A DNA stretch of 13,548 nt from IMG/VR virus record IMGVR_UViG_2541047854_000008; one strand, written 5' to 3'. The stretch comes from a virus (Duplodnaviria > Heunggongvirae > Uroviricota > Caudoviricetes). Shown piece by piece: positions 6,891-10,456 of the stretch. The notes below the pieces were generated by a model. That model was not told the DNA's origin. It saw only the letters and a list, made by a program, of their open reading frames with translations, and did no database searches. The position numbers and the translations under genes were made by a program. The number at the start of each line of letters is the position of its first letter. Position 1 is the stretch's first letter.

Positions 6891-7345
6891 TACGCCTCCT
6901 GCTTGTCGCGCAGCAGCTGGAACTCGCAGCTCTGCGGAATAGTCAGGTGGCAGCCAATATTCATCGCCCAGGCTTCAACCTTACACAGGAAGACATACAT
7001 CTCTCCGGTATCAAGATTGGAGGTATGACGTAATGACTGAATGGTGGTGATTTCACCGGTTACGACATCAACCAGTTCTTTGGTTTCATAACCGAGATAA
7101 GTGTGTTTGAGAGCATCTTTTACCCAAGCTGGAGTGGCGAACGTTTTACCCCTGCTGATGAGGTATTCACTGATTTCGCTGTACCACATGTGGCTGAGTG
7201 CATTCTGGGAAAGACTGCGTCTCTCGCGCCACGGTTTAAGCACCATGCGAAAGCATTTGCCGTCCTCCAGATAAGGCTGGATCTGCCGACCGATAGCGGT
7301 GAAGTTACCGCGATGCAATTTGATACCATCTTGTGGGAGGTTCAC
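6890..7345 (-). CDS. ybcN: NinB/Orf-family recombination protein (YbcN-like), 151 aa, GTG start
   Basis: The translation [62 protein letters not shown]... matches K-12 YbcN as recalled. GTG at 7343-7345 is preceded by GGAGGTGAAGC. Confidence 0.85.
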
Positions 7346-7443
7346 GCTTCACCTCCGCAGAGATCAAACGCTGGATGCAAAATATCGCAGGTGCATTTCT
7401 GCATCTGTGAATGGAGAAGAGAGGTTGGATTGTATGTGCGCAT
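7342..7443 (-). CDS. Possible small ORF (33 aa) translationally coupled to ybcN; may be the K-12 ylcH equivalent. Speculative
   Basis: ATG at 7441-7443 to TGA at 7342-7344, giving [33 protein letters not shown]. The stop overlaps the ybcN GTG (GTGA). No recognisable RBS or homolog; the call rests on position only. Confidence 0.25.
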
Positions 7444-7465
7444 AAACGTCCCCGTTTAGCGCAGA

Positions 7466-7496
7466 AGTCACCGGAGGAGTTCAAACTCCGGTGACT
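7466..7496 (-). terminator. Perfect 11-bp stem-loop (AGTCACCGGAG - 9-nt loop - CTCCGGTGACT) downstream of the HNH-motif gene; possible terminator or regulatory hairpin
   Basis: Inverted repeat read directly from the sequence. It lies between the stop of the 260-aa gene (7538) and the nin-gene block. There is no clear U-tract on the - strand and TTAATTAT follows on the + strand, so terminator function is uncertain. Confidence 0.3.
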
Positions 7497-7537
7497 TAAT
7501 TATGGCAAGTTGATTGTTGAAAATCAATTTAGTGGAT

Positions 7538-8320
7538 TTAGGCGCAATACAAAGGATCATTAGCAGCTCTAATACCGCCCTGAATCGCAAGCCCTGTATG
7601 GCAATTTGACATTGAGCATGATTGCCATCTGTGCAAGGGACCTCCATTAATCGAAACTTCCAGCAGATCTTTATCTCCTTTCATCCTGACCCCTTCATAC
7701 AACATATCAAGACGCTCAACAATCAATCCTGTTGGAGGTTCCATTTTTAGAACGAGGGCAAACTCTCCTGGCCCACGTCGTATTGTTATACGCGGGCCGG
7801 TACACTCCACATCCCAATTGTCTGATTTAGCTTTCCATTCATTTTCATCTATCAGTAAAGTCTCCTTACCAATAGAATTACAGAAAATTCCTGATAAAAG
7901 CATCGGTCCATGTGGTATGGGTGAAGGTTTCACAGAAAGAATGGGTTGTTCGTTGACTACAATCAAATTTTGACAGTTATGAAACGTCACTCCTGCAAAT
8001 TTTACTGTTATAGGCTCATTATGAAAATCAAACATTTCATTTGCAAAACCAGCCTGTAAGCACTTGGGATTTCTGTCAGCTATTTCCACTGTCTGTGCTG
8101 AAAGTCTACCACGAGCTCTTTTTTGATTGCATTGGGAGCAAAGAAGTGTCATTCCATTCGGATCATGTATTTTGGCATCAACGAAGTCAGGTTTAAAATG
8201 CTCATAATCATAAAATCCAAATCCACAAATTACACAGCCAAAGCCGCACCTTTGCCTTATCTGACGTTTTATTGTCTCAGGTATTCTTCTTGAGAGCCCG
8301 TGTTTATTAATATTGTCCAT
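7538..8320 (-). CDS. Hypothetical 260-aa protein with an N-terminal zinc-finger HNH (beta-beta-alpha-Me) nuclease motif and an uncharacterised ~190-aa C-terminal domain
   Basis: ATG at 8318-8320 with an in-frame stop 5 codons upstream and only a weak SD. Residues 25-65 read RCGFGCVICGFGFYDYEHFKPDFVDAKIHDPNGMTLLCSQCNQ, i.e. C-x3-C-x2-C ... EH ... N ... C-x2-C-N, the spacing typical of HNH nucleases. The C-terminal region is not recognised. The gene is AT-rich relative to the lambda-like core. Confidence 0.6.
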   Translation of the reverse strand: MDNINKHGLSRRIPETIKRQIRQRCGFGCVICGFGFYDYEHFKPDFVDAKIHDPNGMTLLCSQCNQKRARGRLSAQTVEIADRNPKCLQAGFANEMFDFHNEPITVKFAGVTFHNCQNLIVVNEQPILSVKPSPIPHGPMLLSGIFCNSIGKETLLIDENEWKAKSDNWDVECTGPRITIRRGPGEFALVLKMEPPTGLIVERLDMLYEGVRMKGDKDLLEVSINGGPLHRWQSCSMSNCHTGLAIQGGIRAANDPLYCA

Positions 8321-8450
8321 ATGGTTAGTACGCTATAAGTTTGTTTCTATAATTTTACCACAATAGATAAGTTTGTATCAGAAATCGCTATATGGAGTGA
8401 GCGGAATATTTATATTATTCATGCAATTGCTCTCCCGTACGCAGCCCGCA

Positions 8451-8476
8451 CTTCCGTCATCGCAGAATGACGGAAG
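8451..8476 (-). promoter_or_regulatory. Perfect 10-bp inverted repeat (CTTCCGTCAT-cgcaga-ATGACGGAAG) in the intergenic region between the 107-aa and 260-aa genes; candidate operator or attenuator hairpin
   Basis: Read directly from the sequence. It lies 19 nt past the stop of the 107-aa ORF and upstream of an AT-rich stretch that contains an extended -10-like TGGTAAAAT (- strand, about 8350-8360). No U-tract follows on either strand. Confidence 0.3.
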
Positions 8477-8494
8477 CCTTACTAACTAGCGCCT

Positions 8495-8818
8495 TTATTG
8501 AAACAGATTCTGAGGTAAATGCGGCAATACTTGACTCCACTTATCATCCTGCCACGGCTGAAGTTTTACATGTGCCGTTTCTCGGGCGAGGATTGCTCGC
8601 GCTCTGTTGAGTCTCTGGGGATATTCTTGCTCGATGGAAGTGAAGTGACCAGCCTCACCATGCTCCGCATCCTGAAGAAGATGAGTAACGTTCTGGTAGG
8701 CAATTAACATCACATTCCCTGCTCGCCATAACCAGGCGAGTGTGCAAAGTTCGTTATCAGTGAATTGTTTTGTGATTGGGAATTGTTGAACTGCTAGAAC
8801 GGGAACGCCAGCATCCAT
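8495..8818 (-). CDS. Hypothetical protein, 107 aa, no recognised family; upstream partner of the HNH-motif gene
   Basis: ATG at 8816-8818 with an in-frame TAG 3 codons upstream and AGGGA 8 nt upstream. Translation MDAGVPVLAVQQFPITKQFTDNELCTLAWLWRAGNVMLIAYQNVTHLLQDAEHGEAGHFTSIEQEYPQRLNRARAILARETAHVKLQPWQDDKWSQVLPHLPQNLFQ. Coding status rests on ORF length and position only. Confidence 0.45.
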   Translation of the reverse strand: MDAGVPVLAVQQFPITKQFTDNELCTLAWLWRAGNVMLIAYQNVTHLLQDAEHGEAGHFTSIEQEYPQRLNRARAILARETAHVKLQPWQDDKWSQVLPHLPQNLFQ

Positions 8819-8929
8819 TGGCAGTCCCTATAGTAAAACCATAGCTCAGGACGCTTCGTTCAGGATAGATACTTTTATTGTACTTACCTAACTTTCTTAC
8901 TATAGCACGGTTGGAAAAGTGATTATTAC

Positions 8930-10456
8930 TCAAAAATAAACCTCACCATCAACCATATATTTGAGAGTACTTATCGCCTGCTGGGCGGATATTGTTTTCA
9001 TTAAAGGATAGTGTTTAAAAACAATGCCATTCATAAAATAGATATCACAGGTTTTATTATCTGTATTGATTATGATTTTTTCGAATGTTTTATAGGCAAG
9101 TGTACGACATAGCTCTCGCCCATTTTTACTGGTTAAGTCAATAGCATGAAAATCACCAAGTGAACTCACCGCTTTACTCTTCAAAGTTTTTAATGATACC
9201 GAAGCCCTTCGTAATTCTTTATCTAATACTCTGATTTTTTCTGCTATAGCGGTAACTTCAGGCGCAACAGATAATGCAGCAATTAAATTATTAATTTTCA
9301 TCTGGAGCTCAATAATTTTCAACTCTAAAGTTTCATTAGCATCTTTCTTGTTTTCAACTGGTTGGATTTTACTACAATTAAAAAGCAACTCATTAATGAT
9401 ATTATAATCAACCAAATCTCTCTTTATTGATGGCCTGTCACATCGATGCAGTCTTCTCATCGGACAAACATAATAGCCATGCAAACTTCCAGATACCGCA
9501 TGAACAATCATGGTATTACCACAAGCCTCGCACTTCATAACTGTTCGAAGTAGATTTATCAACATAGGATTTTTGCTACTATTGCTAATACCAAAAGGTG
9601 CCAACCGAATTTCCTGCACAGCGTAAAACAAATCATCTGATATGACTCTGGGATAATAGCCAGCGATTTCACTTATTCCTTTACCTCTTGCACGATATGA
9701 AGGTACGCATATACCTATCAGAGCTTTATTCGCTAATAATTTTTCAATTACAGAAGGCCCCCATGCACTTTCTTTGCCTGAGAAATTTTTTACAGCATGA
9801 TCATTTAAATACTTGGCTATTGCATTCAATGATCGCCTTTCCATCCTGAGTTTAAAAATTAGCTCAATCGTTTTCACCCTGTCGGGGTCTGGAATAAAAG
9901 CTGTTCTTTTGTCATCCAATGAGAGCCATCTCGGACAAGACGCCGTCATAATCGTGCCTGACTCCAGTGCATCCTGCCGTTTTTTCTTCCATGATAATTT
10001 AACCCGACTTGACTTTATCTCGCTTTCTTCATTTGCCCTTTGTGCTATAAGTATGGCTTTTATTAATGAATATGGATCATTCAAAGAGTCAATATTATAG
10101 ACTGTATTATCGCAAAGAGTTATAACATCAATACCGTGATTCAAAATCAATTTCAGACGCTCAATCGCTTCACCGACTTTTTCTCTTGAAAGTCTGTCCA
10201 AACTTTCAACTAACAATGTAGTTCCTGGCAATATATAACCATGCTCTATAGCATCTAAAAATTCCGAAAAAGCTCCTGATTGTGCATGCTTTCCTTTGAA
10301 TGCACTTAATCCTAAATCTTCATATGTTATGGTATCAAGATAATAATCACTATTTACCTTTAACCATTCAGCAATAAGTCTTCTCTGTCGGTTCAATGAG
10401 TCGCCAGACATCTGACCTGGTGATGAAAATCGCATATATGCTATGGCTTTTTTCAT
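8930..10456 (-). CDS. ybcK: Large serine recombinase (resolvase/invertase-type N-terminal catalytic domain plus recombinase and zinc-ribbon domains), 508 aa
   Basis: ATG at 10454-10456. The N-terminus MKKAIAYMRFSSPGQMSGDSLNRQRRLIAEW... carries the serine-recombinase catalytic motif (YxRxSS). The C-terminal part has a Cys cluster (CEACGN...CPMRRLHRC) and a coiled-coil-like segment. Matches K-12 YbcK in length and sequence as recalled. AT-rich. Confidence 0.9.
   Translation of the reverse strand: MKKAIAYMRFSSPGQMSGDSLNRQRRLIAEWLKVNSDYYLDTITYEDLGLSAFKGKHAQSGAFSEFLDAIEHGYILPGTTLLVESLDRLSREKVGEAIERLKLILNHGIDVITLCDNTVYNIDSLNDPYSLIKAILIAQRANEESEIKSSRVKLSWKKKRQDALESGTIMTASCPRWLSLDDKRTAFIPDPDRVKTIELIFKLRMERRSLNAIAKYLNDHAVKNFSGKESAWGPSVIEKLLANKALIGICVPSYRARGKGISEIAGYYPRVISDDLFYAVQEIRLAPFGISNSSKNPMLINLLRTVMKCEACGNTMIVHAVSGSLHGYYVCPMRRLHRCDRPSIKRDLVDYNIINELLFNCSKIQPVENKKDANETLELKIIELQMKINNLIAALSVAPEVTAIAEKIRVLDKELRRASVSLKTLKSKAVSSLGDFHAIDLTSKNGRELCRTLAYKTFEKIIINTDNKTCDIYFMNGIVFKHYPLMKTISAQQAISTLKYMVDGEVYF

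Follow-up and report, generated by a model that had tools for sequence, protein, structure and literature searches.

Results

Genetic organization of the locus

The DNA analyzed in the current work (here named "the window") is a stretch of 13,548 nucleotides, which is a DLP12-type defective lambdoid prophage of Escherichia coli and which is identical, from position 7400 to 9000, to the corresponding region of strain D2 and others. Its early rightward operon is located on the minus strand and has the order P, ren, emrE, ylcJ, ybcK, a 107-aa ORF, a 260-aa ORF, a ylcH-like gene, ybcN, ninE, ybcO, rusA, ylcG and quuD. The region of interest is the spacer between the 107-aa and 260-aa ORFs, which contains a palindrome adjacent to the former and an AT-rich segment adjacent to the latter; both genes flanking the palindrome are located on the minus strand, and the features are summarized in Table 1.

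The 107-aa ORF matches Pfam P22_AR_C (E = 1.5e-13). A 202-aa protein encoded in strain P276M comprises both a Bro-N and a P22_AR_C domain, and the ORF has 81% identity to its residues 105-202. The ORF is thus the C-terminal half of an antirepressor-like protein, from which the DNA-binding Bro-N domain has been lost. When the window is compared with K-12, homology is interrupted from 7527 to 8921, and in K-12 this interval is filled by ybcL-ybcM. The two genes, called insert genes in the initial annotation, are indeed an insert relative to other DLP12 copies, which therefore corresponds to a cargo replacement.

An AlphaFold2 model of the 260-aa protein (mean pLDDT 80) was compared with known structures by Foldseek, and its first ≈90 residues proved similar to HNH nuclease domains, both that of CBASS Cap5 and those of McrA-type restriction enzymes (probability 0.97-0.98, E = 0.03-0.13). 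No match was obtained for the C-terminal domain, which is rich in beta structure, and the protein received no PADLOC, NCBIfam or PDB-sequence assignment and none in Pfam above threshold. The name "HNH gene" used previously is thus weakly supported: the structural resemblance of the N-terminal domain speaks for it, while the Pfam HNH match, at E = 0.043, lies below the cut-off of that family. Members of the protein family (phrog_6544) share 50-79% identity across Enterobacteria, Burkholderia, Comamonas, Pseudomonas and Vibrio; the family is widespread in proteobacterial lambdoid prophages and, in the lambdoid prophage loci examined, is encoded just after the replication genes. The 260-aa HNH-like protein is a candidate for a prophage-borne defence nuclease or for a selfish nuclease.

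Table 1 Features of the spacer and its flanking genes (coordinates are those of the window)
Feature	Coordinates	Strand	Description
260-aa cargo gene	7538..8320	-	HNH-like N-terminal domain, beta-rich C-terminal domain; phrog_6544
AT-rich 5' region of the cargo gene	8321..8443	-	found in one context only
Direct repeat, copy B	8335..8347	-	GAAACAAACTTAT; at the predicted transcription start
Predicted sigma-70 promoter	8352..8381	-	CTGATA (8381-8376), 18-nt spacer, TG (8360-8359), TAAAAT (8357-8352); from promoter scan
Direct repeat, copy A	8367..8379	-	GATACAAACTTAT; overlaps the -35 hexamer
Outer 3' arm remnant	8444..8450	-	TGCGGGC, counterpart of TGCTGGCA in the sister allele; from BLAST end-points and alignment
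Hairpin	8451..8476	-	perfect 10-bp stem, 6-nt loop; homologous to the terminator of the sister allele; read as a relic, a re-registered terminator hairpin
107-aa ORF	8495..8818	-	P22AR_C antirepressor-like (rha/ant) 3' remnant, residues about 96-202 of 202; Bro-N missing

A perfect inverted repeat follows the 107-aa ORF

On the plus strand, the palindrome consists of CTTCCGTCAT (8451-8460) and ATGACGGAAG (8467-8476), which are complementary at 10 of 10 positions and are separated by the 6-nt spacer cgcaga, and the perfect 10-bp palindrome previously noticed just past the stop codon of the 107-aa ORF is accordingly genuine. In the minus-strand transcript the hairpin starts 18 nt past the TAA stop codon (8497-8495), and as RNA it comprises 11 pairs and a 4-nt loop. 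Shuffling of the window with preservation of dinucleotide composition gave an expectation of 0.11 perfect 10-bp inverted repeats with loops of 3-10 nt per window (corresponding to ≈0.0015 per 174 nt), as compared to three that are observed. The fold of the 26-nt hairpin has a predicted energy of -14.7 kcal/mol (z = -5.9) and that of its 51-nt context an energy of -22.8 kcal/mol (z = -4.05), whereas the fold of the whole 180-nt spacer is unexceptional (z = -1.0), so that the hairpin alone stands out.

Just as an intrinsic terminator, the element is a stable, GC-containing stem-loop positioned just 3' of a gene. An intrinsic terminator is further characterized by about five or more U in the eight positions right after the stem, and in this respect the hairpin differs: its RNA tail, UGCGGGCU, contains two U in eight, the equivalent minus-strand DNA sequence being TGCGGGCT with two T in eight, and a T-run is absent after the palindrome on either strand. 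A terminator scan of both strands called no terminator at the palindrome. The absence of the U-tract is the reason why the hairpin is not classified here as a terminator, in agreement with the earlier statement that it is not a standard intrinsic one. A scan of the entire window with Rfam covariance models returned zero matches at E <= 1.

The palindrome was retrieved at 82 places in 81 genomes, in every case at the same locus, and is present as a single copy in the window. A dispersed palindromic repeat of the REP/BIME-like type was considered and rejected, the element being found at one locus and in one copy per genome.

A predicted terminator of a sister allele is homologous to the hairpin, which abuts a break in homology

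BLAST comparison of the window with phage PhiR26_1 and four E. coli prophages identified homology which spans the 107-aa ORF and in all cases ends at position 8444. This end is located 7 nt past the hairpin, at the point where a T-tract follows in the sister allele carried by these relatives, and coincides with a step in GC content, from 57% (8444-8494) to 33% (8321-8443). Downstream of the stop codon, the coding strand of the sister allele has the general sequence (from 5' to 3') CTAGTTAGAAATA CTGCCAGCAT TCT(G/A)CG ATGACGGAAG TGCTGGCA TTTTTT(TT)GG, while the window allele reads CTAGTTAGTAAGG CTTCCGTCAT TCTGCG ATGACGGAAG TGCGGGC followed, beyond the break, by TGCGTACGGG. In the sister allele an outer stem is formed by TGCCAGCA and TGCTGGCA and is succeeded by T6-T8; the predicted structure has 13 base pairs in its stem, which contains a single bulge, and a loop of 6 nt (-15.9 to -17.9 kcal/mol), with 6-8 U coming directly after it. 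Taking this minimum-free-energy fold together with the U-tract, on which the assignment rests, the segment is a predicted canonical intrinsic terminator. The simple terminator scan misses the sister allele because its stem contains a bulge.

Superposition of the two alleles indicates how they differ. The sequence that constitutes the 3' arm of the palindrome in the window is loop sequence in the relatives, and the outer 3' arm of the relatives is damaged in the window, where the U-tract is absent. In the register of the palindrome, complementarity amounts to 7/10 in the sister allele versus 10/10 in the window, and the 5' arm of the window differs from its sister counterpart at three of ten nucleotides. 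These are exactly the positions which in the sister allele are mismatched against ATGACGGAAG, and each of the three differences is a change to the complementary base, an outcome whose chance is ≈3e-4 for three random substitutions in 10 nt. The 25 nt surrounding these 5'-arm changes have also diverged, with eight differences, and in one variant of the sister allele the 3' half-site carries an additional change (ATAACGGAAG).

The distribution of the two alleles was assessed by means of a scan anchored in the flanking sequence, and therefore blind to the hairpin, which covered ≈60 loci and recovered only these two alleles of the post-stop segment, with no third allele among them. Variation within the terminator allele is limited to the loop and to the length of the T-tract and never concerns the outer stem; the hairpin is invariant within the window allele. 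An exact 15-mer derived from the 3' arm was unspecific as a probe, in that it yielded chance matches only in genome contigs, and its matches in viral contigs had to be filtered by BLAST, leaving ≈45 true loci.

The AT-rich segment and the predicted promoter of the cargo gene

GC content is 27.5% over positions 8300-8419 and 33% over 8321-8443, as opposed to 45% for the whole window. The segment 8321-8443 is present in 81 of 5426 complete E. coli genomes, in each case with at least 99% identity and in a constant context upstream of the 260-aa gene. Scans of viral and metagenome contigs with a 24-mer from the promoter region likewise returned this same context only, and because of this single context the cargo's own 5' border is not definable from an independent insertion. 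Spacer ORFs of 21-47 aa were listed, none of them with supporting evidence.

The sequence TGGTAAAAT occupies 8360-8352 on the minus strand, and 31 nt separate it from the ATG at 8320. It reads TGgTAAAAT and hence has the composition of an extended -10 element, in which TGn precedes a -10 hexamer whose second base is A and whose sixth is T. Considered by number alone, promoter-like matches occur at chance level (seven in the interval 7300-9200 versus 5.2 expected, and 23 in the window versus 25 expected from shuffles). Counted from the ATG, the motif TGnTAnnnT occupies -40/-39 both in the window and in its three closest homologous loci (L251, L252 and L254), while more distant homologues contain plain -10-like hexamers only, and alignment of the DNA upstream of the HNH homologues to the window revealed no similarity besides the -10 element. 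As a phylogenetic footprint of the extended -10 promoter predicted here, this conserved position is a modest one. The presence of an extended -10-like element about 30 nt before the ATG of this gene, on the minus strand, had been pointed out beforehand and is confirmed, at a distance of 31 nt and with its position kept in three loci. A search of the literature by protein accession found no transcript data.

The predicted -10 element lies between the two copies of a 13-nt direct repeat, GA(T/A)ACAAACTTAT, which have a spacing of 32 nt. When the 174-nt region was shuffled 2000 times, such a repeat arose in only 15 cases; its operator-like arrangement suggests that it may represent a candidate binding site for a regulator.

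On the plus strand, the best promoter-like match of the region (TTGGCA-16-TAAAAT, 10/12) is located at 8172-8199, antisense within the HNH-like ORF and directed toward the spacer.

The cargo slot and a co-inherited block

The 107-aa and 260-aa ORFs belong to a cargo hotspot (7528-8920) situated between ren/ybcK, or the antirepressor-like gene, on one side and the ylcH-ybcN promoter on the other. The slot was compared between the window (7528-8920) and the loci L002, L007, L009, L257, L258 and L259; elsewhere it is occupied by PD-lambda-1, SIR2-family or DUF4041 genes, a 169-aa ORF, a 309-aa ORF, a theta-subunit cluster, ybcL-ybcM or small ORFs. Relative to other DLP12 variants the cargo block of the window is bounded at 7527/7528, and nearly all cargo classes examined (K-12, L257, L258, L002 and L003) have their border at ≈7527/7528, that is, at the -35 hexamer of a promoter at 7499-7527; L009 is the exception, its homology running on to 7587. 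This minus-strand, promoter-like sequence (TTGATT-17-CATAAT) is followed at 7465-7497 by a perfect 12-bp palindrome, AAGTCACCGGAG-N9-CTCCGGTGACTT, the counterpart of which is labelled "possible regulator-binding site" in the phage 82 record X92588, along with putative -35/-10 signals.

In PhiR26_1, the orf33/ylcH-proximal segment (L002 4901-4998, corresponding to 7366-7463 of the window) is present twice and flanks a cargo pair composed of Rha and the 169-aa ORF. An arrangement of this kind suggests that duplicated promoter-proximal modules may act as recombination substrates for cargo exchange.

Among ten haplotypes of the window type, polymorphism amounts to 0.7 per 100 nt over positions 7538-8494, as compared to 2.7-7 per 100 nt in the flanks. 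This represents an approximately five- to ten-fold drop relative to ybcK, the 107-aa ORF and ybcN (positions 7000-9500 being compared), from which it follows that the HNH-like gene, the AT-rich region, the hairpin and the last few codons of the antirepressor-like remnant travel as one recent block. The breakage of other DLP12 classes at 8496-8515 agrees with this one-block reading. The low polymorphism is consistent with the HNH block having recently spread among diverged DLP12 backgrounds, or else with its flanks having been co-converted.

Discussion

A probable relic terminator at a cargo-swap joint

Taken together, the spacer is probably an ordinary mosaic junction, at which a relic terminator hairpin marks the joint of a cargo swap and is followed by the likely promoter of the cargo gene. 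According to this interpretation, the 174-bp spacer would be a fusion, at ≈8444, of two pieces. The piece next to the stop codon (8494-8444 on the minus strand) would be the 3' untranslated end of the truncated antirepressor-like gene, and its hairpin would derive from the intrinsic terminator of that gene, whose outer arm and U-tract were presumably lost where other downstream DNA became joined on. Three substitutions in the 5' arm result in perfect pairing with what is loop segment in the sister allele. The hairpin should still form in read-through RNA; intrinsic termination in E. coli is expected to be slight where no U-tract is present, and since this tract is missing, the hairpin of the window is expected to terminate E. 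coli RNA polymerase poorly. Its role would be at most that of a polymerase pause site or of an obstacle to 3' exonucleases.

The distal piece (8443-8321) would be the AT-rich control region belonging to the cargo gene itself, with an extended -10 sigma-70 promoter positioned ≈25 nt upstream of the ATG and a short leader that lacks a Shine-Dalgarno sequence. If active, a promoter of its own would allow the HNH-like gene to be expressed in a moron-like manner from the silent prophage.

As regards polarity, we infer a change from terminator to relic. In view of there being no outgroup allele, the opposite order could also apply, with the window form being ancestral and the terminator form derived.

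The rise from 7/10 to 10/10 complementarity may itself have a single cause. A one-step quasipalindrome template switch during replication is a possible, if tentative, origin of the perfect palindrome; quasipalindrome template switching is documented in E. coli and has been shown to both create and repair RNA stems (PMC8794818). With a similar degree of reservation it may be envisaged that, following loss of the 3' arm and the U-tract at the joint, the remaining 5' arm was copied anew from what had been the loop, thereby restoring a perfect hairpin, now in a new register. The three-base change can also be explained by stepwise compensatory substitution under selection, and given that no outgroup is available the two routes are inseparable. 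Were template switching to be the cause, the locus would provide a natural and datable bacterial case of this process making an RNA hairpin, which could have been kept because it shields the promoter region of the cargo from read-through or because it stabilizes the upstream transcript.

Alternative explanations for the palindrome

The initial annotation had offered three functions for the palindrome, namely an operator, an RNA hairpin or a recombination site, and of these it is only the RNA-hairpin reading that comes near the evidence, the other two being unsupported. One version of that reading regards the hairpin as a working, selected RNA element, either a 3'-end stabilizer or a factor-assisted partial terminator which insulates the cargo gene from upstream read-through. 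The coordinated change at three positions (chance ≈3e-4), the stability of the hairpin (z = -4 to -6), its position directly after a stop codon and the complete lack of polymorphism in its 26 nt among ten haplotypes would all be in keeping with such a role, yet we regard it as unlikely. At the diversity of the block only ≈0.2-0.5 variable sites are expected in 26 nt, which makes the invariance uninformative, and because the hairpin is identical in all window-type copies, selection and neutrality cannot be told apart from these copies. Moreover, the upstream ORF is a gene remnant, which leaves scant reason for stabilization of its mRNA, and a stem that has no U-tract should cause little intrinsic termination in E. 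coli. As for the accompanying proposal that the three arm changes are compensatory and were fixed by selection after loss of the outer stem, selection is not required, since one template-switch event would account for them (PMC8794818).

Were the palindrome an operator through which a dimeric regulator (the 107-aa protein, for instance) controls the HNH-like gene, this would account for the perfect symmetry of the 10-bp half-sites around a 6-bp spacer and for the intergenic position upstream of a gene. This possibility is very unlikely, seeing that the center of the palindrome (8463.5) precedes the -35 hexamer by ≈85 nt and the predicted start by ≈120 nt and so lies far from the promoter it would have to control; that the half-site symmetry is not kept in the sister allele, where 7/10 positions match in the same register and it is an RNA stem in a different register that is conserved; that the 107-aa protein contains P22AR_C alone, without Bro-N or an HTH domain; and that Turner and L257 carry the 107-aa gene but lack the palindrome. 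A target for site-specific recombination, be it for the large serine recombinase YbcK or as an attC-like cassette end for cargo exchange, is brought to mind by the homology break at 8444, 7 nt from the palindrome, by the serine recombinase gene 450 bp away and by the high variability of the slot, but we give it hardly any weight. The palindrome does not track ybcK: PhiR26_1 (L002) and P276M (L007) carry it or its homologue but no ybcK, and Turner (L003), L257 and K-12 have ybcK without it. Borders of other cargo classes scatter over 8444-8921 (with breaks at 8496, 8502, 8510, 8515 and 8921), the only recurrent border being the opposite one at 7527/7528, and the palindrome occurs once per genome and thus does not flank a cassette on both sides. 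The supposition that the palindrome is a chance inverted repeat, without history or function, can draw on its single occurrence and on its short length of 10 bp; it is next to negligible in light of the ≈0.0015 such repeats expected in 174 nt, of the homology to the terminator of the sister allele and of the fact that the three substitutions target the mismatched positions.

Implications

The palindrome as an element in its own right is of little importance. The junction nevertheless serves as a worked example of how mosaic joints in lambdoid prophages can cut through terminators and leave behind perfect palindromes resembling operators or recombination sites, and as such is a caution for annotators. 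Of more practical value than the element is the locus, a cargo hotspot that harbors a conserved HNH-like protein apparently equipped with a promoter of its own.

Comparison with known systems

Quasipalindrome template-switch mutations (the Ripley model, the E. coli thyA hotspot, and the work of Monttinen and Loytynoja 2022, PMC8794818) share with the window a clustering of substitutions in one arm, here raising complementarity from 7/10 to 10/10, with each change copying the complement of the other arm. They differ from the present case in that the 25 nt around the changes have also diverged here (eight differences), which leaves room for stepwise substitution with selection.

The cargo gene can furthermore be set beside the extra genes found in lambdoid phages. 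The HNH-like gene is subject to presence/absence polymorphism between otherwise collinear prophages; the slot it occupies contains PD-lambda-1, SIR2, DUF4041 or ybcL-ybcM elsewhere. A moron is an extra gene, provided with its own promoter and terminator, which has been inserted between conserved genes. In this polymorphism and these alternative slot contents, as well as in its lower GC content (41% for the ORF and 33% upstream of it) and predicted own promoter, the HNH-like gene is equivalent to the lambdoid morons as conceived by Hendrix and Juhala. It differs from them in lacking a terminator of its own, the next features being the promoter and palindrome of the ylcH-ybcN module (a terminator scan from the stop codon at 7538 to the promoter at 7527-7499 gave nothing terminator-like), and in that the upstream hairpin belongs to the neighboring gene and not to the moron.

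As to its kind, the hairpin is nothing new: it resembles, and probably descends from, an intrinsic terminator of the nin region. With the lambdoid nin-region terminators (the tR2/tR3/tR4 class, located between the replication genes and Q) it has in common a stable, GC-containing stem-loop right after a stop codon, and a position in the rightward early transcript (PR direction) between P/ren and the Q homologue quuD. The differences, as predicted from sequence, are that the window hairpin has no U-tract (two U in eight) and that its stem register departs from that of the sister allele; nor is there sequence similarity between the window hairpin and the lambda terminators themselves. The link to this class is instead provided by the sister prophages, in which the complete stem and U6-U8 are present in a segment that is homologous in sequence to the hairpin of the window.
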